Sequence record: PZ445436.1
Source of the DNA: a phage
Strand: one strand, 5' to 3'
DNA length: 64,000 bases
Shown piece by piece: positions 2,471-44,792 of this stretch; position 1 is the first letter of the stretch; the number at the start of each line of letters is the position of its first letter. A model generated the notes under the pieces. That model made no database searches and was not told the DNA's origin. It was given only the letters and a program-made list of their open reading frames with translations. The translations under genes were made by a program, and so were the position numbers.

Positions 2471-2507
2471 TTTCTAATCTCCGTAATTCTGTATCAGTAG
2501 TTGATAG

Positions 2508-2545
2508 TTGTATAGTACCACAGTATGCTTTGGTTGTAAACCGTT
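2508..2545 (-). promoter_or_regulatory. Early promoter for motA
   Basis: Minus strand GTTTAC (2536-2541), 18-bp spacer, TGG-TACTAT (2512-2517), conserved leader ACAACTATCAACTAC. Confidence 0.55.
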
Positions 2546-2569
2546 TTGTGAAATTTTTTTTTTTTTGAA

Positions 2570-2598
2570 ATAAAAAAGGGAGAGCCGAGGCTCTCCCT
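2570..2598 (-). terminator. Intrinsic terminator-like hairpin
   Basis: GGGAGAGCC-GAGG-CTCTCCC stem (2578-2597) followed on the minus strand by a U-run. Confidence 0.55.
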
Positions 2599-2602
2599 AA
2601 AA

Positions 2603-2752
2603 TTACTGCATGACTGTGATAACTGTCATGATAACACGTTGAATTCCGAACGCAAGAAGACCTCCTGCTACGGCTGGAACAACACCTAAACCCGCCAGTA
2701 AAATGCTACCAGATACTAATGCAGCGCTTGTAATACCAATGAATGGACTCAT
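2603..2752 (-). CDS. Small hydrophobic protein (49 aa), translationally coupled to gene 52 (ATGA overlap); absent from the ORF track because under 60 aa
   Basis: Hand translation: MSPFIGITSAALVSGSILLAGLGVVPAVAGGLLAFGIQRVIMTVITVMQ. Confidence 0.45.
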   Translation of the reverse strand: MSPFIGITSAALVSGSILLAGLGVVPAVAGGLLAFGIQRVIMTVITVMQ

Positions 2753-4077
2753 TTGATTTCCTCTAAATCTTTGGTGTATTCGGTAACTACATCAGTAGTT
2801 TTCCAATATTCATTTTCTTCTTTTTTAGCTTTAGCTTCTTCAGCAAGTTTCTTTGCTTCGTCGGAAGTCATATGAAAAATATTCATTCCAACTAATTTAT
2901 CAACATAAGAAGAATACATCTCAATTTTAGAAAGTTCTTCGGTCAGTTCTTTACGAGTTTTACCCTGTACAACAATTTCACCTGAAATTACTTTCTTAAT
3001 GAAATGCGCCTTGGCAAAGGCTAAACGAAAAGCTGACTCAGTTTCTTTAATTTTGTTATCAATTCGTTTTTGGACATAAGTTTTACGAACTTCGACGAAG
3101 TCTTTGATTAAATCAACTACGTTATCGTAAACTTGCAGTTTTCCTTTCTCATTAATAACCGTAATATTCTGAGAACGACGCTCAATCAACCCAAAGTCTT
3201 TCATAATTTTTGCATGGCGTTCTTCTTCGTTATCGCTCAAAGAATATTCTTTACGGAATTTAACTTTGAAGCCAAAGCCATGCTCACCACAAGCATCATC
3301 CCATGTAATGAAGCCTTTATCTTCAAGTGGGTCTAAGATTTTACTCACATAAGTTTCACGATCATACTTATACGGAATCTCAGTGATATTCATTTGAGTT
3401 CGTGAAGTAAACTTGTACGTTCCACGAATTTCATATTGACCGTCAATCTCAACGACTTCACCACGAAATTCTGGGAATTCTACCTTCGGTTTAGTTACTT
3501 TCTTTCCTTGAATAGCTTGCAGTACAGCTTTCTTGACAGAAGAAACACTATGAGGAAGAATGTAAGTTGCATAACCAGTTGCAATACCGGAAACGCCATT
3601 AAGAAGAACAGTAGGAATAATAGGCAAATAGAAAGCAGGCGGAATGTGTTCTTTATCTTGATGTACCGGAGCATATTCAGTATCTTTATACACGTTATAG
3701 AAATTTTTACTTATACGAGCAAAAATATAACGACTCGCCGCTGCCTTTTGAACGGTACGAGAACCAAAGTTTCCTTGACCATCTAACAGAGGAAAGTTAT
3801 TATTCCAAGTGTTAGCCATCAAAGCTCCCGCATCTTGCGCAGAGTTTTCGCCATGGTGATATCCAAGGTCCGCTACACCACCTGCGATAGAAGCGAGCTT
3901 ATGAAACTTATCTTTATTTCCTCGTGCCAAATCAAGAGCTCGAGCAATAACAAATCGTTGAACTGGCTTAAATCCATCAATCATATTTGGGATAGCACGA
4001 TTTTCAACCGTGTACATAGCATAAGCCAATGCTTCATTATCAATGATACTTTTTAAATCGCGATTATTCAGTTGCAT
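2749..4077 (-). CDS. 52: DNA topoisomerase II medium subunit (gp52)
   Basis: 442 aa as in T4 gp52; GyrA-like cleavage/rejoining region. Confidence 0.88.
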   Translation of the reverse strand: MQLNNRDLKSIIDNEALAYAMYTVENRAIPNMIDGFKPVQRFVIARALDLARGNKDKFHKLASIAGGVADLGYHHGENSAQDAGALMANTWNNNFPLLDGQGNFGSRTVQKAAASRYIFARISKNFYNVYKDTEYAPVHQDKEHIPPAFYLPIIPTVLLNGVSGIATGYATYILPHSVSSVKKAVLQAIQGKKVTKPKVEFPEFRGEVVEIDGQYEIRGTYKFTSRTQMNITEIPYKYDRETYVSKILDPLEDKGFITWDDACGEHGFGFKVKFRKEYSLSDNEEERHAKIMKDFGLIERRSQNITVINEKGKLQVYDNVVDLIKDFVEVRKTYVQKRIDNKIKETESAFRLAFAKAHFIKKVISGEIVVQGKTRKELTEELSKIEMYSSYVDKLVGMNIFHMTSDEAKKLAEEAKAKKEENEYWKTTDVVTEYTKDLEEIK

Positions 4078-4214
4078 AAATTTACCATACTAGTGAATGT
4101 AGTGCCATAATAACATCAGAAATGAAAAGCACGACTTGAATTAATCCGAACATTATTCCGTAATATAACGCTATCAATAAAATAGCAAGGGCTAATGAAT
4201 AGCCCAAGATTTTC

Positions 4215-4370
4215 TTAATCATTAGATAACAACACAAATGTTAAATATGCACACATACCCTGAGCTAAAGCTTGCGAAAACACACTGCTGGCATCGATAC
4301 AGATAGTTAAAACACATGCTACTATCCAACAAATAAATGAAATAACTCCTAATAATTTTGCGATATTCAT
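4215..4370 (-). CDS. ac: Ac-like small membrane protein (51 aa)
   Basis: Hand translation MNIAKLLGVISFICWIVACVLTICIDASSVFSQALAQGMCAYLTFVLLSND; SD GAGGAAAAT before ATG; size and position match T4 ac. Confidence 0.55.
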   Translation of the reverse strand: MNIAKLLGVISFICWIVACVLTICIDASSVFSQALAQGMCAYLTFVLLSND

Positions 4371-4457
4371 ATTTTCCTCACTGGCGTCCGAAGACGCCTT
4401 TAGTTTTAAGATTATTACGATAGAACTGCATCACGTGTTCGTTGTGGAAATTACTCA

Positions 4458-4916
4458 TTAATATGCCTGCAAAACGAATTTAAAATTATCAGCCAACATA
4501 CGGTTCATTTCTTCAAGTGTTTGATACTCAGAATGATGATTACGAGTAAACGCCAAAGCTAACTGACCTTTTCCAAATCCCGTCGTCAGAGGTTTCATCT
4601 TAGAAGCAGGCAGATAAAATACTGTGTATGGAACATTGTTATTTGCAATAGTACGTGCAAGCTGAGACCGACGTTGACGAATATGACTTAGAACTGCACT
4701 GAATCCTTGCTTAGAACGCTGATTACCTACATAAAATCGTGCAGACACACATGGATTACTAAATGGACGACCATCTAATTTACTTACTAAAAAGTAAAAT
4801 CCAGGTTTAGACAAAATGTCTTTGTGCGGAGTTCCCAAAAACCATTCACCGCCCTTGATTGTACCAATAACAGTTGCGCCTGCATTGTTCAGATCAGTAA
4901 CAGTCATGTATTTCAT
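4458..4916 (-). CDS. ndd: Nucleoid disruption protein Ndd (start refined to MKYMTV...; the track ORF carries a 16-codon upstream extension)
   Basis: 152 aa from ATG at 4914-4916 with SD GAGGAAA; sequence recalled as T4 Ndd. Confidence 0.75.
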
Positions 4917-4976
4917 ATTAATTTCCTCTAAATTATTTTCTACTCCAAGGCCGCATGAATACACGCGGCCATTAAA

Positions 4977-5192
4977 TTAATCGTCGCAGTCGACGCTCAA
5001 TTCCCAAAACTCTTCTACGGTATAAGTTTCAGTATCATTTTCAATACAGAAACGTTCATTACTATTGTTTGCTAAAGTAGCATTAACTGTCATTTTTTCG
5101 CTAGTGCTCTTAAGAGGTGAAATGCGAATTAACTGATCACCATTATCTAAACAAAAAATTTCACCAACTTTTACATCTTTAAAAATTTTCAT
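4977..5192 (-). CDS. Hypothetical protein (71 aa)
   Basis: ORF track. Confidence 0.45.
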   Translation of the reverse strand: MKIFKDVKVGEIFCLDNGDQLIRISPLKSTSEKMTVNATLANNSNERFCIENDTETYTVEEFWELSVDCDD

Positions 5193-15997: not shown

Positions 15998-16001
15998 CTT
16001 T

Positions 16002-16685
16002 TTATCGTTTTGTTGGAAGAGATAGAGGATCGCATTCTTCCTCTGATGGAGCATCTTCAAGACCCATAGCATATCGCAAAGCATACTTCATCATCAGGAT
16101 GTCTTTCGCACAGTCATGAATAGAATCATGCGCAACGAATCCATCTAAAGTTCCTTTTGGAAGAGGACACGTGGTCATATCACGAACAAGCAGAAGTGCT
16201 TCAATTCTGGTACGAATATCACGCTGATTCCAGAATTTACAAGGTTCTAACTTAAATGTGTCAAGCTCATTCTCGGAAACGCCGTTAAGACGTTGAATAT
16301 CGCGAATGAGATCGACTAAAATTGGAAAATCAAACGACATTCCACGGCACCAACCTTGAGATTTCCAAGGATCGATATTATGTGCATTGATGTAATCATT
16401 AAATTTTGCAATACCATCGATAGTGCTTACATCTTCATCGGATGGTGCAATATTTTTTCGAGCTTCAGGAGACTGATTTTTCCACCATTCGATAGTGCTT
16501 TTAGTAAAAAGACGATGTCCTTTTTGGCTTTTTAAATCAAATTTGATTTTAATGCCACGTGAAACTAATTCATCAAATGTTTCAACTACTTCTGGGTTAG
16601 GGTCAAAAGCAATTACAGCCAAATCAATAACAGCTGCTTTTTCACCGCTTCCCATTGTTTCAAAATCTATAATAAAATCAAACAT
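16002..16685 (-). CDS. dexA: Exonuclease A (DexA)
   Basis: 227 aa as in T4 DexA; DEDD-type exonuclease residues; adjacent to dda. Confidence 0.75.
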   Translation of the reverse strand: MFDFIIDFETMGSGEKAAVIDLAVIAFDPNPEVVETFDELVSRGIKIKFDLKSQKGHRLFTKSTIEWWKNQSPEARKNIAPSDEDVSTIDGIAKFNDYINAHNIDPWKSQGWCRGMSFDFPILVDLIRDIQRLNGVSENELDTFKLEPCKFWNQRDIRTRIEALLLVRDMTTCPLPKGTLDGFVAHDSIHDCAKDILMMKYALRYAMGLEDAPSEEECDPLSLPTKR

Positions 16686-16942
16686 TAAATTTTCCTCGCT
16701 AAATCACGAATTTGACCTACAGTATAGTCTTGAATATAAACTTTATTGATAGGCTCATCAATAAATTTTGCCATAGATTCAATGTCTTTTTGTATTTCTT
16801 CAAGACTGTATACTATCTTTAAAGCTTTTTCGCGAATAGTAATATTTTCAGGACCCTGATTTTCTTCAATGACAGCTTTAACATTTGTCATAAGAGATTT
16901 AAACTGGTACCAACTCAACTCAATCATTAATAATCGCCTCAT
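16685..16942 (-). CDS. Hypothetical small protein (85 aa), member of a tandem triplet
   Basis: ORF track. Confidence 0.45.
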   Translation of the reverse strand: MRRLLMIELSWYQFKSLMTNVKAVIEENQGPENITIREKALKIVYSLEEIQKDIESMAKFIDEPINKVYIQDYTVGQIRDLARKI

Positions 16943-23822: not shown

Positions 23823-24013
23823 TTTGAATGATCTATAATTAATTTTAAATCTTCTTCACTGACAAAAATTTCGTCAGGACCTTCTATAACTTCAACCATA
23901 CGAAGTTGATTAGTTAAGAGCTCACATACGAGCTCCTTGTTATAATCTTTAAATAGCTGGTCAATACGTTTCTTATGGGCTTTCTTAAGCTGACGCTTAT
24001 TTAAACGAGCCAT
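23819..24013 (-). CDS. Hypothetical protein (64 aa)
   Basis: ORF track. Confidence 0.45.
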   Translation of the reverse strand: MARLNKRQLKKAHKKRIDQLFKDYNKELVCELLTNQLRMVEVIEGPDEIFVSEEDLKLIIDHSK

Positions 24014-24531
24014 TAATAACCTCGGTCTTGACGAGCGAAGTTTTCAGCATTTTTCAGGTAATAAAGTTTAAAGATTTCTTCAGCTGACATTCCAAGAGCA
24101 ATAAATTTATTCATGAAAAAGTGAAATTGATCAATCAGTTCAAATTTAATTTCAAGTTGATCTTCAGGAGATAAGTCTTGAATTTTCTTGGATTGCATTT
24201 CAGAATAACGTTTCTTCCAAGGTTTCCATACAGCAGAAGCTTCTTTTTCACCATTACTCATACCACCAAGAGAAGTATATAGCTCGCGAGTTTCGTCTGC
24301 AATATAATCGTCTTGGTTTCGCAACCAAGCAAGAACTTCTCCTGCAGTTTCAAGTGAATCAGGATGACGATTTGTTTCTGGTTTATCATTAGCCAAACGA
24401 ATCTGTAAATGCCGCTGCATATCAAGCATAACCTGCAGTGGGTCAATATTGTGCATAATATTCTCAGCATATGCACGATTTGCTTTATCAACACCTTCGA
24501 TCAAATGAGCACATTCATTAAAGTGAGCCAT
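24013..24531 (-). CDS. Hypothetical protein (172 aa; start refined to MAHFNECAHL...); possible all-alpha NTP pyrophosphohydrolase (MazG-like) fold
   Basis: ATG 24529-24531 with SD AAAGGA; acidic E..GE...DE stretch; fold assignment is a guess. Confidence 0.5.
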   Translation of the reverse strand: MAHFNECAHLIEGVDKANRAYAENIMHNIDPLQVMLDMQRHLQIRLANDKPETNRHPDSLETAGEVLAWLRNQDDYIADETRELYTSLGGMSNGEKEASAVWKPWKKRYSEMQSKKIQDLSPEDQLEIKFELIDQFHFFMNKFIALGMSAEEIFKLYYLKNAENFARQDRGY

Positions 24532-24602
24532 TATTTTTCCTTTCAATTCATGGGTTAGTAGATTAATTATACAATAAATATATAAAGCAATAAGGAGGAC
24601 AT

Positions 24603-24803
24603 ATGGTACAAAAATTAATGGCACTTGTTAATGCCATCAAAGGTAATAAAAAGCGTATAGCTTTTACTATTTCTGCTATGGTAGGAATTTTACTCTGGAA
24701 CTTTATTTTATCACCTGTTGCAATTGCACATGGTATTAATATTCCAGTAGTTACTCTTGATACATTCGTAGATTTAGCATTTGCTTTAGTTGGGTTAATT
24801 TAA
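24603..24803 (+). CDS. Small hydrophobic protein (66 aa) on the plus strand, convergent with gene 61
   Basis: Strong SD AAGGAGG 4 nt before ATG; stop shares the TTAA tetranucleotide with the gene 61 stop; predicted TM helix. Confidence 0.45.
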   Translation: MVQKLMALVNAIKGNKKRIAFTISAMVGILLWNFILSPVAIAHGINIPVVTLDTFVDLAFALVGLI

Positions 24804-25996: not shown

Positions 25997-26623
25997 TTAA
26001 CCTCTATTCATAAAAGCATTAAAAATTTGGTCATCAATAGAAACATTTACTTTAGACTGTTTTTCTGATGGTAATTCATATCCACATATTACAATTTTGT
26101 GATCAATATCAAAATACACAGAAGCAATATGATTAATGATGTTTTCAGTAAAGTCTAAATCAACATCAATATCTTTTTGACCACAGCCCAAAGGATAAAT
26201 AATGCGAGTAATTCGATTATCTTTAACAAATATTCCACCGACATACTCTGTGCTGCGTTTAAAGTCTACACGCCGACGAAATGAAAAATATTCAGGCTCT
26301 CTATGAGCTCGGCTCATAGGACACAACGAGTAACTAGAATAAGAGATGTCAAATCCTACGCCTTCAATATGAGCCAAAGTGTCATGATTAAACCAATTAT
26401 AATCGTACGCCAAATCCATTAGATTATAATATGTAAAAGGCACCGGATTAACATCATTAGTCACAAGCATGTAATTAGCAACTGCTATAATTTCATTGTT
26501 TTTAACGAATACAAACCGTGATTGATGCGAATGACCTGGACCCGCGTTTTCACGATTAATGATATAACACTGGGCACCTTTATATTTGTATGTATCTTTG
26601 CATTTGTGCATTTGATAGAGCAT
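25997..26623 (-). CDS. Hypothetical protein (208 aa) in the 41-61 intergenic insert
   Basis: ORF track. Confidence 0.5.
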   Translation of the reverse strand: MLYQMHKCKDTYKYKGAQCYIINRENAGPGHSHQSRFVFVKNNEIIAVANYMLVTNDVNPVPFTYYNLMDLAYDYNWFNHDTLAHIEGVGFDISYSSYSLCPMSRAHREPEYFSFRRRVDFKRSTEYVGGIFVKDNRITRIIYPLGCGQKDIDVDLDFTENIINHIASVYFDIDHKIVICGYELPSEKQSKVNVSIDDQIFNAFMNRG

Positions 26624-28913: not shown

Positions 28914-29276
28914 TTAAAAGAATTTAAATTTTTTCTTTGACCTTTTATTAAATGCATCTTGCAGTTGCATTGTAATACATTTTTCTACATGAGGAGCTAA
29001 CTCAGCTTTTCTTTCTTGGTCAAGAACAGCAAAGTCCATTACAACCTTTCCATCAACCCAATCCAGTTTAGTTACATACACTATATGCGTAGAACCATCT
29101 TCTAGTTTAATGACAATCTCCTGGATAACATTTTCCATAGCAGATTTAATTATCTTAAGAGACTCATTAAAAAGACGTTCTTTTCTTTCTTCTTCCCCCT
29201 CCGAAGAGGGGGATTCATCGATAATTTCCAGATCTAAATCTAAATCATCTTTATTCATTAAATTCTTCCATATCAC
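28914..29276 (-). CDS. Hypothetical acidic protein (120 aa) in the gene 40 position
   Basis: ORF track; lies between uvsX and 41. Confidence 0.5.
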   Translation of the reverse strand: MIWKNLMNKDDLDLDLEIIDESPSSEGEEERKERLFNESLKIIKSAMENVIQEIVIKLEDGSTHIVYVTKLDWVDGKVVMDFAVLDQERKAELAPHVEKCITMQLQDAFNKRSKKKFKFF

Positions 29277-30432
29277 TTAACTGTTCGAGGTCAGTTTCTA
29301 AATCAGCAGCTGATTTACTTTTACTTTCTGGAGATTTAAATTTTTCAACCTTTGAGTTAATCAATTCATCAACTTCAGCTTCAACAATTTCATTGCTATC
29401 AATAGCACCTAACTGATAAGCACGTTTAATAGCATCTCGGAATGGTTGATGCTTAAATAAAGGACCCCAGAATGTAGTGCAGTTGGTATCTTTTGCACGC
29501 CAAGATTTTTCTTCGCGAATCATCTCACCGGTTTCTTCATCAAGAAATTCACGGGCATACCAGCCATTTTTAGGTTTTACTACAAATCCTAATTCTAGAG
29601 CCATATCTAACAATCCAGAATAAGGATCGATACCACCGTCAAATTTAACATCAATAAAGAATTTACTTTTTTCTTTAACGGTACGAGATTTTTCTACATT
29701 TAGAACAAATTGATACCCCTGAAGATCAGAACCATCTTTAATCTGGCGTTTACCGATAATGAATACGGTATCAGCCGAATACATTACGCCTGTACCACCT
29801 GTCATCACGGTTTTACTAAACATTTCAATTGTTTCAATTGTATGGTTAACCGCAACGCACGGAATATTTTTAATGCTAAAATAAGGAGTAACAATACGGA
29901 ATAATGACTTCAGTGATTTAGCACGAGTCATATCTGCCACAGATTTTTCATTCAAGGCATCTTCCGTTTCTTTCTTAGAAGCCATATTACCGATTGAGTC
30001 GATGAATACAATAACCTTTTCACCACGCTCAATAGCTTCAAGCTGGTTCACCATATCAATTTTCAGCTGTTCAACTGACTGGATTGGCGTATGAATTACT
30101 CGTTCCGGGTCAACTCCCATGGATCGCAAATAAGCTGGAGTAATACCAAATTCGCTATCATAGAATAGACAAACCGCGTCAGGATATTTGTTCAAATATG
30201 CCGCAACCATAGTCAAAGACATATTTGATTTAAAGTGTTTAGAAGGCCCTGCGAAAATAGTTAAACCAGACTGCATACCGCCATCAATCGCACCAGAAAT
30301 AGCAATATTAAGCATTGGGATTTTTGTACGGATTACATCCTTTTCATTAAAGAATTTAGATGTAGTCAGTTCAGCAGTCATTTTAGAAGTGGAAGCTTTA
30401 ATCAAACGGGATTTTAAATCTGCAATAGACAT
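29251..30432 (-). CDS. uvsX: Recombinase UvsX (RecA-like)
   Basis: 393 aa; sequence matches recalled T4 UvsX. Confidence 0.88.
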   Translation of the reverse strand: MSIADLKSRLIKASTSKMTAELTTSKFFNEKDVIRTKIPMLNIAISGAIDGGMQSGLTIFAGPSKHFKSNMSLTMVAAYLNKYPDAVCLFYDSEFGITPAYLRSMGVDPERVIHTPIQSVEQLKIDMVNQLEAIERGEKVIVFIDSIGNMASKKETEDALNEKSVADMTRAKSLKSLFRIVTPYFSIKNIPCVAVNHTIETIEMFSKTVMTGGTGVMYSADTVFIIGKRQIKDGSDLQGYQFVLNVEKSRTVKEKSKFFIDVKFDGGIDPYSGLLDMALELGFVVKPKNGWYAREFLDEETGEMIREEKSWRAKDTNCTTFWGPLFKHQPFRDAIKRAYQLGAIDSNEIVEAEVDELINSKVEKFKSPESKSKSAADLETDLEQLSDMEEFNE

Positions 30433-30509
30433 TCATTTTTTCCATAGGCATCATTATATTTTCCTCACTGGTTAAAGATAGAGTAATTATAACACAATAA
30501 ATTTAGGCA

Positions 30510-31358
30510 TTAATCAACTGCTATTGGATGAATAGCATTAAACTTATGAAATGCTTCTGATTTTTCTTTACGCGAAACACACATGCGAAGAACCTTTAGT
30601 GGTTCGTCTTCTTCACCCAACGATTTTCGTTTTTCAATATTAGAAGTTTTCCAACGAGCTTGCTCTGGAAACTCTCTATTGATTTGCTCAAGCGCTCTAT
30701 TATGTTTAGAATTACTACGAATTGAGCTGCACCCGCCAGGAGCTTGTGCTTTTCCAGATACAACCAGATATTTGAACAAGGCCAAATGCGGATAACCTTG
30801 ATTAATTAAATTGAGAAATGCATACATATCTTCGCATAAATCAATTTTTCCATACCCAATTTGTTCTGTCGTAAGTTTTCCGAGGTCATACCATGTATTC
30901 GTGAATCCGTATGAATTTTCACGATAATTACCCCAAGATGAAGTAATTTTAAAAATAGGTAGACGAGCATGGCCATGATAATACCCGCAATCCATGGCAT
31001 CTTCAACGTATTGAATCAATTCATAGAACTGTTCACGAGTTAATTGATTAACTTTATCTACGCAGCGACGATCATCTCTCTTTCGCATTGAACTCATACG
31101 AATAGTAGTATCATCGTCAATCATCCAGATTCGTTGACCTGCATACATATCAGTAATTGCTTTACGAGTACCGGCAATTCCGTTTACATCATCAGGAATA
31201 GTTATAATTTTAGCTCTAGACCCATAAGCATCATAATAAGCTTTTTCTTCGTGTTCACGCACTACAATATGCGGTTCATAATCAGTCGGAAACATATCAA
31301 GGGCAGAAACTGCCCCGACACGTTGATAACTTGGAATTACGAATTGAATCATTTCCAC
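30510..31358 (-). CDS. Glycosyltransferase, GT-A-like (DxD motif), in the slot occupied by beta-gt in T4
   Basis: 282 aa with IDDD motif; T4 beta-gt is recalled as 351 aa and GT-B; consistent with a T2/T6-type second glucosyltransferase. Confidence 0.55.
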   Translation of the reverse strand: MEMIQFVIPSYQRVGAVSALDMFPTDYEPHIVVREHEEKAYYDAYGSRAKIITIPDDVNGIAGTRKAITDMYAGQRIWMIDDDTTIRMSSMRKRDDRRCVDKVNQLTREQFYELIQYVEDAMDCGYYHGHARLPIFKITSSWGNYRENSYGFTNTWYDLGKLTTEQIGYGKIDLCEDMYAFLNLINQGYPHLALFKYLVVSGKAQAPGGCSSIRSNSKHNRALEQINREFPEQARWKTSNIEKRKSLGEEDEPLKVLRMCVSRKEKSEAFHKFNAIHPIAVD

Positions 31359-32089
31359 TCACCTTTATAGTCTTTTTTCACAATATGAGTTTCGCCAGTA
31401 TTCCACCAATGATCAACCAAATAAAAATGACGAGAATATACATGAAGACTTCCAACATTCCATATAATAGAACCTGCTTTATACTGACGAGTTGAATCGC
31501 CTGCATTCAAATCAGATACTAATTTATCTAATACGTATTTTTGCCATGCATAATCATTACGGAATCCGAAGACCACGTCATTTGAGCGCATGTTAACAAC
31601 TGCATTAATTTTCTTGTCACGAATCAGATACTGTACGGTATTCGTACACATGAAATCTGACATGCCATCTTTATTGTAGTCAAACTGCATAGATGGACGA
31701 GTATAAATCATGATACCACGTCGAGAATCAGGATTTTGACCAAGTTCAGCTAAACACATATCATACTGGGCATAGTTATCTTCTGACCAAATAGCCCAGC
31801 CATAATTCGAGTTAATTTCGCCTTTAGAAGATGCTACCTGCTGCCAAATCTTTGGTGTTTCACCCGGAATATCTTTAACGAACAAACTCTTAGATTTATA
31901 CCATTCAAGTTCACGCTGAATGTATTCATCATTAAGAGCGCCAAAAATAAACGGTTCATCTGCTACAAATGATGCGCCAATAATTTCAATAGTTTTAACG
32001 CCAGTTTTATCAACTACGAAATCTTTTTCCTTTAATGCAGTTCCCAAATAAAAACGGATTTCTTCAACTGTCATAGAGTCATTAATCAT
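31349..32089 (-). CDS. 42: dCMP hydroxymethylase (gp42)
   Basis: 246 aa as in T4 gp42; thymidylate-synthase-like. Confidence 0.8.
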   Translation of the reverse strand: MINDSMTVEEIRFYLGTALKEKDFVVDKTGVKTIEIIGASFVADEPFIFGALNDEYIQRELEWYKSKSLFVKDIPGETPKIWQQVASSKGEINSNYGWAIWSEDNYAQYDMCLAELGQNPDSRRGIMIYTRPSMQFDYNKDGMSDFMCTNTVQYLIRDKKINAVVNMRSNDVVFGFRNDYAWQKYVLDKLVSDLNAGDSTRQYKAGSIIWNVGSLHVYSRHFYLVDHWWNTGETHIVKKDYKGEWK

Positions 32090-32242
32090 TTAAACCTCAA
32101 TTGATGCATTCATATTTAAATTGTAACAGTAATAAACCCCACCCTATGATAAGAGTTGGAATCATAGCAGGAACTGTTACGCTATAGTATATACTTATTA
32201 TAACCATCAAGATTAAAAGCAACACTGCTATAATTTTGCTTT

Positions 32243-32494
32243 TCATTCCTTTTCTCTGATGATAATTACCTGATTTGGCTGTGTAGACTTTTTAGTTTCA
32301 CCCGCAATTGACCAAATAAATGTAATAAACCAACCAATAATTGACCAGTTAAACAGTAAAGATGTGAAAAAGATTCCTACTGTCGATTTTGACCCACGCA
32401 TCAAGGCGATAAACCATGGAAGCATGTATATAATAATAGCCAACACGCCTGAAACTAAAACCATAAAAATTGAACCTGCTACTAAAGTTTCCAT
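32243..32494 (-). CDS. imm: Superinfection immunity protein Imm
   Basis: 83 aa membrane protein in the T4 imm position. Confidence 0.65.
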   Translation of the reverse strand: METLVAGSIFMVLVSGVLAIIIYMLPWFIALMRGSKSTVGIFFTSLLFNWSIIGWFITFIWSIAGETKKSTQPNQVIIIREKE

Positions 32495-32892: not shown

Positions 32893-33141
32893 TCAAATGC
32901 AAGTAGTAATTACTCCAGTAGTGCTTATGCAGGTATTACCCATTTGCACACCTAGCGTTCCATTAGTATTCATATGAAGATTATCATCAATTTTAACTGA
33001 TATTTTACCATTAGTGTGAATAACGGTGCTAGATTCAATCACAGGTTGAGTATCATTTTCAACACTAACAAATGGAACTGCTGCTAATGCAACTAAACAA
33101 ACTGCTAAGCATCCCATAACAATTTTCATTTTATTCTCCAA
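32893..33141 (-). CDS. Secreted/membrane small protein (82 aa)
   Basis: Hydrophobic N-terminal signal-like segment. Confidence 0.45.
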   Translation of the reverse strand: MENKMKIVMGCLAVCLVALAAVPFVSVENDTQPVIESSTVIHTNGKISVKIDDNLHMNTNGTLGVQMGNTCISTTGVITTCI

Positions 33142-41796: not shown

Positions 41797-42812
41797 TGTG
41801 TTGCCTCTACATATAGCTGATTCGCATATTGAATAAGTGCTTCACGGTCAGAATCAGTGATGTCTGGAATTGCATTAATGTATTCTTCCATCAACGTCTG
41901 AAGAGATTGAACTTCAACTTCTTCACTGTCATCTGACTCGACAGAGTTATCAATCTTTGACACAACTCGTAATGAATGCACAACTTTTTCTAGTTCAGAT
42001 TCGAACTTCGTTAGATTTTTGTCTACTTCAGTTACTATAACACGTACTGATAGATTTGTAAAATCTTTATAGTCAATTTTTCCTTTAAATGGATAATGAA
42101 TTCTACGATGCCAGGTAGTATTGTTTGGAATAAATTCCATTCGTTCTGTTTCTGTATCAAACATCCAGAACCCGCGAGGGTCATTCTCGTCACCTGCAGT
42201 TAGTGTCCATGGTGTCCCAATATATCTGACGTTTGCAGCCTCAGAAATAGTATGGAAGTGACCAGACCACACTTCTTTATAAGTCTTAAGGAAATCAGGT
42301 TCAAGACCGTGAGATTTCATTCCTTTATAAAAATAAAATCCATTCAGTTCCCAGTGACCAACGCAAAAAGAAGCAGATGAAGTTTTGATGTGTTCAAGAA
42401 TTTCACCAGTATTTTCTTCACACATCCAAGGAATTAAATCAATTAAACATCCGTCAAAATCTACTGTAGTAGGCTTATCATATACTTTAACATTGGGATA
42501 TTTAGCCAAAAGCTCAGTAGAAGCATTTGGATGCATTACATTTTTGTAGTGGAGATCGTGATTTCCTACAATAGTATGTAATGTGATTCCAGCGTCATCA
42601 AGCATTTGAACTATTTCACGGGCAAACTCCATAGTTTTATGTGTGATTGCTTTTCGCACATCAAAAATATCACCATATTGAATCCATACAGTAATTCCAT
42701 TTTTCTTAGAATATTCTATCGCTTGCTTAATTCCATCAATTTGAATACCGCGAATCCACTCATCATCAGCTTTAACGCCTAAATGCCAATCACCCAAGTT
42801 TAGTATTTTCAT
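41793..42812 (-). CDS. 47: Recombination nuclease subunit gp47 (Mre11/SbcD-like)
   Basis: 339 aa as in T4 gp47; calcineurin-like phosphoesterase motifs (GDWH, GNHD). Confidence 0.88.
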   Translation of the reverse strand: MKILNLGDWHLGVKADDEWIRGIQIDGIKQAIEYSKKNGITVWIQYGDIFDVRKAITHKTMEFAREIVQMLDDAGITLHTIVGNHDLHYKNVMHPNASTELLAKYPNVKVYDKPTTVDFDGCLIDLIPWMCEENTGEILEHIKTSSASFCVGHWELNGFYFYKGMKSHGLEPDFLKTYKEVWSGHFHTISEAANVRYIGTPWTLTAGDENDPRGFWMFDTETERMEFIPNNTTWHRRIHYPFKGKIDYKDFTNLSVRVIVTEVDKNLTKFESELEKVVHSLRVVSKIDNSVESDDSEEVEVQSLQTLMEEYINAIPDITDSDREALIQYANQLYVEATQ

Positions 42813-43440
42813 GGTGTCTTTTCCATCCTAATTTAGCTGCTTTTGAAACCAGTTCTTTAATTTTTCCTTTTGTCCATTCAGGACCAGGAGGTTCATGACA
42901 TAACATTTGCCTAACTCCGTTATTATACCATTTTTTACCTTTATTATGTGATGAAGCTTTAAATTTATTTGACCTTCCTTTTACATAACCTTCTGGAATA
43001 TAAGGCAAAAAGGCAGATTTTCCTGTTAATGGATCATGCGAATGTATATTTCCTTTACAATTATGAGAACCATATAATGGATGATTTTGTCCTTTATTAT
43101 CTCTTCCAAATGAACCTTTTGGAGCAGCATATGACATATTAAAGAATAATGGATTTTTAACTGCATCATGCAATCGTTGATAATATAACTCGCATTTAAT
43201 AGCTTCTTCACGCGTATCAAATTCAGCTAAAATGCATGAATCAAATAAGTGAGGATTATCTGAAAGCTCTTTATTATAAATTTTCTTATACTTTTTAGAT
43301 AAAACTGAACCATGATATCCAGCTAAATGCCTATCTAAAGACGTAGATCCAATATAAAAAGGAGGAAGTTTATCTCCACTATATATTGTTAAATAAGTTA
43401 TATATTTTTTCATATACCAAGAACCGTCATTGAAATGCAA
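42790..43440 (-). mobile_element. Putative GIY-YIG-type (Seg-like) homing endonuclease ORF
   Basis: N-terminal IYSG...(10 aa)...YIGST spacing typical of GIY-YIG; basic K/G/N-rich C-terminal half; weak translation signals; start uncertain (TTG 43440 or ATG 43413). Confidence 0.45.
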
Positions 43441-43548: not shown

Positions 43549-43592
43549 ATTATATCAAACTCCGTATAAAGCTAAAGGGCCGAAGCCCTTTA
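43549..43592 (-). promoter_or_regulatory. Hairpin at the alpha-gt stop plus candidate middle promoter
   Basis: AAAGGGCCGAAGCCCTTT (43575-43592) then minus AGCTTTA, 12 bp, TATAAT (43549-43554). Confidence 0.4.
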
Positions 43593-44792
43593 TTTTGTAA
43601 TAATGTCAAACTGTTCTTTAAAGCAGAAGCTTGAATCTTGATGCTGATACAAAAATTCATAAGCTTTTTCGCGTTCGCGGTCATAAAGAGTTCGGTCAGA
43701 TGACAGTTCTTTAATACGTTCAAATGTTGATTCCATGTCATTTTCATCAAACCAAATGATACCGCTATCATGCGAGGTCAAAGGAGTATTATCAACACGG
43801 AATTTTAAATTTTCGCCAGTAGATTTCCAAAATACCGGAATTGTTCCACATGCACCAAGCTCGAGATGAGTATATTCTAAAGAACGTTGTAGATATTTTT
43901 TATCCAACTTACTCAACTGATAACCAAAACCGGATTTACTCATACGTTCAAGCATTTCGCTATTTACATAACGGTCAAGAATTTGCGTTGGCAAATTAGG
44001 AGCAATTTTAATTTGGTCTACTTGATGAAGACGATAATACTCGTATGGAATTCCTTTTTCTTTAATAGGAATGAACGCTGGAGAACGTTCCAGACCTTCC
44101 ATAATAGTACTTAGTCCTGCAGGTTTAAGATGTTTTTCGTGAAAATCAAACATCTGATAAAAACCTTTCCATGTAGTCGTACGACCAATCCAACGATTGA
44201 TATTCATGTTAATTTCAGAAACATCTTTCCAGTAGGTTGACCGAACCTTCGCAATATCCATAGGAGGCTGAAAGTTATATACTGTCGGTGCTTCTTCAAT
44301 ATCATCAAACAGAGAAACTGTTTCAGGATACCATTCTTTCATCAGAACTTTATTAAAATCACCATTATCAGAATGGCTAAAAATAACATCAGCTCGACGA
44401 ACAGTTTCTTCTAATCCCAAATTTCGGCGCAAAGAAAGAGAAGAATGGTCATGTTGATAAACTACAACACGAACAGAAGGTTTAATGTTATCAATAATTT
44501 TTTTATAGTTATTAATAGTGTCTTCTTCAACCGAAGTAGCAGGAACTGAATTGATAATTAGAATATCACAATCATTTACCAGCTTAAGTGTTTTATCATA
44601 TTCTTTTGCCAATAAAACCGGAATTGAAAATGATTTATAATCATGCGCGCAATTACGAGTAAATGATTTATCTTTAGCATAAACCAAAGTTACTTCATGA
44701 CCATTCTTAATAAACCAATCACGTTGCTCAAGAGAAAATTTAGTTACACCACAACCTTCAAGACCTCGAGCCATAAAAATACATACTTTCAT
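43590..44792 (-). CDS. agt: DNA alpha-glucosyltransferase
   Basis: 400 aa as in T4 alpha-gt; between 55 and 47. Confidence 0.8.
   Translation of the reverse strand: MKVCIFMARGLEGCGVTKFSLEQRDWFIKNGHEVTLVYAKDKSFTRNCAHDYKSFSIPVLLAKEYDKTLKLVNDCDILIINSVPATSVEEDTINNYKKIIDNIKPSVRVVVYQHDHSSLSLRRNLGLEETVRRADVIFSHSDNGDFNKVLMKEWYPETVSLFDDIEEAPTVYNFQPPMDIAKVRSTYWKDVSEINMNINRWIGRTTTWKGFYQMFDFHEKHLKPAGLSTIMEGLERSPAFIPIKEKGIPYEYYRLHQVDQIKIAPNLPTQILDRYVNSEMLERMSKSGFGYQLSKLDKKYLQRSLEYTHLELGACGTIPVFWKSTGENLKFRVDNTPLTSHDSGIIWFDENDMESTFERIKELSSDRTLYDREREKAYEFLYQHQDSSFCFKEQFDIITK

Follow-up and report, generated by a model that had tools for sequence, protein, structure and literature searches.

The window analysed here is a 64,000-nucleotide stretch of phage DNA (sequence record PZ445436.1). 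The locus described below lies between two genes that were both named by Pfam, the recombinase gene uvsX and gene 42. In phage T4, a 351-aa beta-glucosyltransferase (beta-gt) lies between uvsX and gene 42, as the initial annotation had stated; the T4 map agrees and places the homing endonuclease gene segA there too. In the window, the slot is occupied by a different gene, referred to as ba-gt, g-gt or TAGT, and the order gene 42, ba-gt, uvsX is common to phages ECO4, T2, T6 and Solly. The spacing between ba-gt and uvsX is 77 nt (30433..30509). No segA homing endonuclease is present in this interval, which is likewise compact in T2, T6, ECO4 and Solly. The coordinates of the locus, its motifs and the related genes elsewhere in the window are collected in the table.

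Table. The ba-gt locus, its motifs and its pathway partners in the window
Feature	Coordinates	Strand	Remarks
ba-gt (g-gt, TAGT) CDS, beta-glucosyl-HMC-alpha-glucosyltransferase	30510..31352	-	280 aa, stop codon included; PF20691, PHROG 842; same 843-nt CDS in relatives
Codons GTG GAA ahead of the ATG	31353..31358	-	Extra to the mechanical ORF; probably outside the protein
IPSYQR motif, I6-R11	31320..31337	-	After the first beta-strand (E3-7 in the model); I6 and R11 in 45/45 homologs, P7 in 43/45, Y9 in 41/45
DDD motif, D79-D81	31110..31118	-	45/45 homologs; end of strand E74-78 in the model
E174-D175 ('CED')	30828..30833	-	D175 in 39/45 homologs
uvsX recombinase, downstream flank of the slot	29251..30432	-	PF21134, PF00154
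Gene 42, dCMP hydroxymethylase	31349..32089	-	PF00303, E=4e-16; syntenic with T4 gene 42; makes the hydroxymethyl-dCMP precursor
Gene 56-like dCTPase/dUTPase ORF	24013..24624	-	PHROG 173, nucleoside triphosphate pyrophosphohydrolase, E=3e-44; prevents unmodified dCTP from entering phage DNA
alpha-gt, DNA alpha-glucosyltransferase	43590..44792	-	400 aa; PF11440, E=4e-237; makes alpha-glucosyl-hmC for ba-gt

Called mechanically, the ORF in the slot occupies 30510..31358 on the minus strand, opens with GTG and encodes 282 aa, the length given in the initial annotation. The ORF is present as described, but its length had to be revised. Of the two candidate starts, we chose the ATG at 31352 over the GTG at 31358. 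The ATG lies two codons 3' of the GTG and forms an ATGA overlap with the stop codon (TGA) of gene 42; the DNA across the gene 42 stop and the ba-gt start reads GGTGAGTGGAAATGATTCAA. The ba-gt genes annotated in ECO4, T2, Solly, EH2 and EL begin with an ATG at this site and span 843 nt (280 aa), and the gene in the T6 record NC_054907 begins at the same ATG and spans 840 nt owing to a 3-nt deletion. Because of the ATGA overlap and the annotated start in relatives, we place ba-gt at 30510..31352; translation almost certainly begins at the ATG at 31352 and yields a protein of 280 aa.

Through the ATGA stop/start overlap, ba-gt is predicted to be translationally coupled to gene 42. A promoter scan of 30300..32300 gave 12 promoter-like sites against 9.4 +/- 3.1 expected, and a terminator scan of the same region gave two terminator-like hairpins, both inside coding sequence; no regulatory element is proposed from these scans. 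Two small minus-strand ORFs lie nearby, one of 49 aa between gene 42 and imm (32097..32246; PHROG 3610) and one of 82 aa with a hydrophobic N-terminus between imm.1 and gene 43 (32893..33141; PHROG 4189). The T4 annotation includes neither of them. ECO4, Solly and EL have annotated counterparts of similar size at the corresponding sites, and T2 has one of the 82-aa ORF.

The Pfam scan of the 280-aa protein returned a single family, TAGT (PF20691), with a score of 38.9 bits where the cut-off is 27.5 and an alignment that spans positions 2-205 of the 205-position profile, and PHROG 842 ('beta-glucosyl-HMC-alpha-glucosyltransferase') matched over the full length with E=2e-89. Homologs were found by tblastn in 688 of 50,697 phage records; this breadth and the PHROG match indicate that the ORF is far beyond chance. 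About 470 records (counted as 471 or 472) carry a protein at least 95% identical to the window ba-gt (tblastn), annotated as beta-glucosyl-HMC-alpha-glucosyltransferase. Among the matches listed, this class includes Escherichia, Shigella, Yersinia and Serratia phages, several of them classified as Tequatrovirus. About 200 records, 60-80% identical, belong to Klebsiella, Enterobacter, Salmonella and Proteus phages. Over the full length, the window enzyme is 99.3% identical to that of T2 and 98.6% identical to that of T6, which, together with the presence of alpha-gt, bears out the earlier suggestion of a T2/T6-type second transferase. The Durham-collection phages Solly (OY720021) and EH2 (OZ034684) carry an enzyme 100% identical to that of the window, in the same synteny.

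A single-sequence search for homologs gave 11 proteins and a profile search raised the number to 51; the alignment comprised 45 full-length sequences with identities as low as 13%. The AlphaFold2 model built on that alignment is confident, with a mean pLDDT of 92.8 and a pTM of 0.90, and the modelled fold of the window ba-gt is GT-A. The T6 TAGT has also been modelled as a GT-A fold, in a grouping sister to GT2 (PMC13216743). A sequence search for a solved structure of any member of the ba-gt/TAGT family found none. With PF20691 above its gathering score, the PHROG 842 match and the GT-A model, the protein proved to be a glycosyltransferase, as had been proposed.

Six alignment columns, I6, R11, R63, D79, D80 and D81, are invariant across all 45 homologs, and R212 is kept in 44 of them. 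The IDDD (DxD) motif pointed out in the initial annotation is indeed present: it consists of I78 and D79-D81 in the context WMIDDDTT, with the Asp codons at 31118..31110. From its role in the GT-A family at large, the DDD run would be the DxD-type motif that binds the metal and the UDP-sugar. The IPSYQR segment may form the loop of the GT-A fold that binds the nucleotide-sugar, and E174/D175, by analogy with the (T)ED motif of GT2 enzymes, might supply the catalytic base for an inverting GT-A mechanism.

T4 beta-gt is not among the best homologs of the window protein. Direct BLASTP of the window protein against T4 beta-gt gave no similarity (best E=2.2 over 8 residues), and T4 beta-gt returns a separate Pfam family, PF09198; homology between the two was rejected on these grounds. 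Neither PF09198 or sequence similarity nor a GT-B fold with two Rossmann domains was found for the window protein. A beta-gt at least 90% identical to that of T4 occurs in 29 records, against the roughly 470 with ba-gt at 95% or above. In RefSeq, only T4 pairs alpha-gt with beta-gt, and the vast majority of phages pair one of them with TAGT (PMC13216743); a 2026 study states that the TAGT position is syntenic with that of T4 beta-gt (PMC13390438). The ba-gt arrangement is the norm among relatives, and T4 is the exception. The gene had been described as replacing T4 beta-gt: a different protein does occupy the slot, but the T4-centred wording does not hold, since ba-gt is common and the T4 type rare.

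The window also contains the other enzymes of the pathway. The 400-aa alpha-gt that had been reported elsewhere in the stretch was recovered at the position given in the table. It differs at one residue from the enzyme of T2, at one from that of Solly, at 35 from that of T4 (91% identity) and at 33 from that of T6 (92% identity), and is of T2-type. The gene 56-like ORF has a syntenic counterpart in phage EL that is annotated as a dCTP pyrophosphatase; its true start is probably internal, since it matches the family only from residue 32 onwards.

Between gene 47 and alpha-gt, the window has a 216-aa minus-strand ORF (42790..43440) that matches PHROG 10820/314, homing/HNH endonuclease, with E=1e-94 and gives a weak Pfam GIY-YIG match below the gathering score. 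The corresponding interval holds only the small gene 47.1 in T4 and is a 176-nt gap in T2 and T6. The ORF is probably a mobile homing-endonuclease insertion adjoining alpha-gt. A 208-aa ORF at 25997..26623 on the minus strand matches the Pfam family AdfA (anti-DarT factor A, PF23813) with E=4e-136 and, because of this match, is read as an anti-defence gene in the same early-gene region.

In the pathway that we propose, gene 42 and the dCTPase would ensure that the phage DNA contains 5-hydroxymethylcytosine (hmC), and alpha-gt would glucosylate roughly three quarters of the hmC in alpha linkage. The GT-A-fold ba-gt with its DDD motif would then add a second glucose, with host UDP-glucose as donor, in beta-1,6 linkage onto the alpha-glucose, yielding gentiobiosyl-hmC. 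The reaction and product ascribed here to the window ba-gt are taken, by analogy, from the literature on near-identical enzymes. Profile match, T2/T6 orthology, synteny, GT-A fold, acidic motif and pathway partners were all found, and we are highly confident that the gene is the T2/T6-type 'second' DNA glucosyltransferase (EC 2.4.1.28-type), with gentiobiosyl-hmC as its predicted product.

The homologous ba-gt enzymes of T2 and T6 make beta-1,6-glucosyl-alpha-glucosyl (gentiobiosyl) hmC, which amounts to 5% in T2 and 72% in T6 (PMC6024577). By LC-MS, the DNA of Solly and EH2 consists of about one-third 5-hmdC and two-thirds alpha-gentiobiosyl-mdC, with alpha-glucosyl-mdC at background only and no beta-glucosyl-mdC (PMC13390438). 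Our best prediction for the phage in the window is T6-like DNA that is mostly gentiobiosyl, composed of hmC and gentiobiosyl-hmC and free of beta-glucosyl-hmC, because its ba-gt is identical to the enzymes of Solly and EH2 and its alpha-gt is one residue from that of Solly, which is itself two residues from that of T2. The initial annotation had proposed a 'T2/T6-type' pattern. This stands for the type of second transferase, and the quantity is now refined to T6-like, the classical T2 pattern being mostly mono-alpha-glucosyl. Solly and EH2 are isolates other than the window phage: the nearest records to the window over 25 kb are 97-98% identical, and Solly is not among the best 12 matches to the 25-kb window stretch. 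The ratio could differ in this phage through expression level or other factors, and near-identity does not guarantee a T6-like quantity, because T2 is near-identical in both ba-gt and alpha-gt and yet only 5% gentiobiosyl.

Since the alpha-gt is of T2-type, a T2 pattern might be expected, with the same ba-gt yielding about 70% mono-alpha-glucosyl-hmC and about 5% gentiobiosyl-hmC and the second transferase performing poorly in this background. The alpha-gt is a single difference from that of T2, against 33-35 from those of T4 and T6, and the ba-gt is only two residues off the T2 enzyme. We nevertheless regard this outcome as unlikely, as the measurements point otherwise: Solly, with a T2-type alpha-gt and an identical ba-gt, and EH2, with an identical ba-gt, are about two-thirds gentiobiosyl (PMC13390438), and the window enzyme is without the R11H change that T2 carries at a family-invariant arginine.

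The chance is far smaller that the protein is functionally equivalent to T4 beta-gt, placing a single beta-glucose on the hmC left bare by alpha-gt. It shares the slot of T4 beta-gt, and several database records name the window-type protein 'beta glucosyltransferase', but the two are without sequence similarity and the fold is GT-A here against the GT-B reported for beta-gt (PMC13216743). Phages with this enzyme, moreover, show no beta-glucosyl-mdC and about one-third bare hmC (PMC13390438), and deletion of ba-gt in T6 leaves alpha-glucosyl-hmC only (PMC11078745). We give the least credence of all to a ba-gt whose donor sugar is not glucose or whose acceptor is not DNA. TAGT homologs are diverse, some occurring without alpha-gt or beta-gt (PMC13216743), and the distant ones, at 13-30% identity, carry no assigned specificity; against this, the exact window sequence occurs in phages whose sole extra modification is gentiobiose (PMC13390438), and identity to the classical T6 and T2 enzymes is 98.6-99.3%.

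The T2 enzyme differs from that of the window, Solly and EH2 by R11H and P251S only. In T2 (AP018813; ba-gt at 4283-5125 of the compared segment), nt 32 is changed from G to A, turning CGT into CAT; the R11 codon of the window is at 31320..31322. R11 is kept in 45 of the 45 homologs and P251 in 22. Eight records, seven of T2 and one of SV76, match T2 exactly over 201 nt, from -35 of the ATG to nt 166, and because of this identity the T2 base at nt 32 is common to all eight. The nearest other records to T2 over the 201 nt differ by one base, which for EH2 is nt 32. The 60 nt upstream of the ba-gt start are the same in T2 and Solly. A degenerate-codon scan of IMG/VR found IPSYQHVG in 0 contigs and IPSYQRVG in 5.

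We tentatively suggest that R11/P251 is the fully active natural ba-gt, and that the T2 pattern (70% alpha-glucosyl, 5% gentiobiosyl) stems from a hypomorphic R11H allele, possibly helped by P251S, that became fixed in the T2 lineage; we judge the chance that this is so to fall slightly short of even. If true, the T2 pattern would be no distinct type, and almost all Tequatroviruses with alpha-gt and ba-gt, the window phage included, would be 'T6-type'. This reading bears on T2 and not on the window phage. We did not find R11H stated as the cause of low T2 gentiobiosylation in the literature cited here.

Other alleles differ as well. The T6 record AP018814/NC_054907 (ba-gt at 2501-3340 of the compared segment) is missing, in frame, one Asp from the invariant DDD run. 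In another T6 record, MH550421 (642-1484 of the compared segment), the DDD run is intact, but codon 10 is an amber TAG and the CDS is annotated from Met20. These discrepancies between T6 records are either stock-specific mutations or sequencing errors. In phage EL (OZ034682), hmC, alpha-glucosyl and gentiobiosyl forms are reported at about 1:2:2. Its ba-gt (16001-16843 of the compared segment) differs from that of the window by seven substitutions (I50V, M89I, R95K, C97R, V101I, A202S and Q203H), and its alpha-gt (3069-4271 of the compared segment) is of T6/T4-type. The mono- to di-glucosyl ratio may be tuned by natural variation in ba-gt. The type of alpha-gt was rejected as what sets this ratio: Solly (T2-type) and T6 (T4-type) are both mostly gentiobiosyl, T2 (T2-type) is not, and EL (T6/T4-type) is intermediate (PMC13390438).

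An effect of this glucosylation on sensitivity to modification-dependent restriction had also been suggested from the sequence, and the link is already published for Brig1 (PMC11078745), BapA/Brig3 (bioRxiv 10.64898/2026.02.25.707755) and GmrSD/BrxU (PMC13216743, PMC13390438). T6 without ba-gt carries alpha-glucosyl-hmC only, and its DNA is then a substrate of the Brig1 glycosylase in vitro (PMC11078745). The BapA glucosidase releases glucose from the DNA of a T6 g-gt deletion and not from wild-type T6 DNA (bioRxiv 10.64898/2026.02.25.707755). In the proposed mechanism, the bulkier gentiobiose would shield DNA from enzymes with alpha-glucosyl-hmC as their target, namely Brig1 in vitro and the BapA glucosidase, and gentiobiosyl DNA would still be a target of GmrSD/BrxU-type enzymes. 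As for T6 and the Durham phages, we predict that the virion DNA of the window phage shows relative resistance in vitro to alpha-glucosyl-hmC-specific glycosylases of the Brig1 type, resists BapA-type deglucosylation and stays sensitive to GmrSD/BrxU-type enzymes. The bare hmC, roughly 25-33%, would stay exposed to hmC-specific systems.

The identity of the gene, its fold, motifs, synteny and pathway partners were established directly in this analysis. The finding is correct but already known: the ba-gt gene was recognised decades ago, and publications up to 2026 cover its fold class, its prevalence and its synteny with T4 beta-gt. For the window phage, ba-gt therefore matters as annotation only, and current understanding is unchanged.

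Among characterized systems, the T2 enzyme (280 aa; Q06717 as cited in PMC6024577) has the same length and slot, matches the window enzyme at 278 of 280 residues and is paired with an alpha-gt one residue from that of the window. The T6 enzyme (YP_010067197.1), validated genetically by deletion, shares the slot, fold and function (PMC11078745; PMC13216743). Its RefSeq sequence has five differences from the window as counted, those named being Y40N, D55G, R106H and a DDD run shorter by one Asp, and it is paired with an alpha-gt that is T4-type. Cellular GT2-like GT-A enzymes (such as 9omh WrtF, 9jma AvpGT, 1h7l SpsA and 6h1j TarP) have only 7-16% sequence identity to ba-gt and act on glycans or lipids instead of DNA. 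T4 beta-gt resembles ba-gt in its equivalent genome position adjoining gene 42, and both attach glucose from UDP-glucose to modified phage DNA in beta linkage. The T4 enzyme is nevertheless unrelated in sequence, has 351 rather than 280 aa and belongs to another fold class, GT-B (PDB 1JG7; PMC13216743). The acceptors also differ, T4 beta-gt acting on bare hmC and ba-gt on alpha-glucosyl-hmC.
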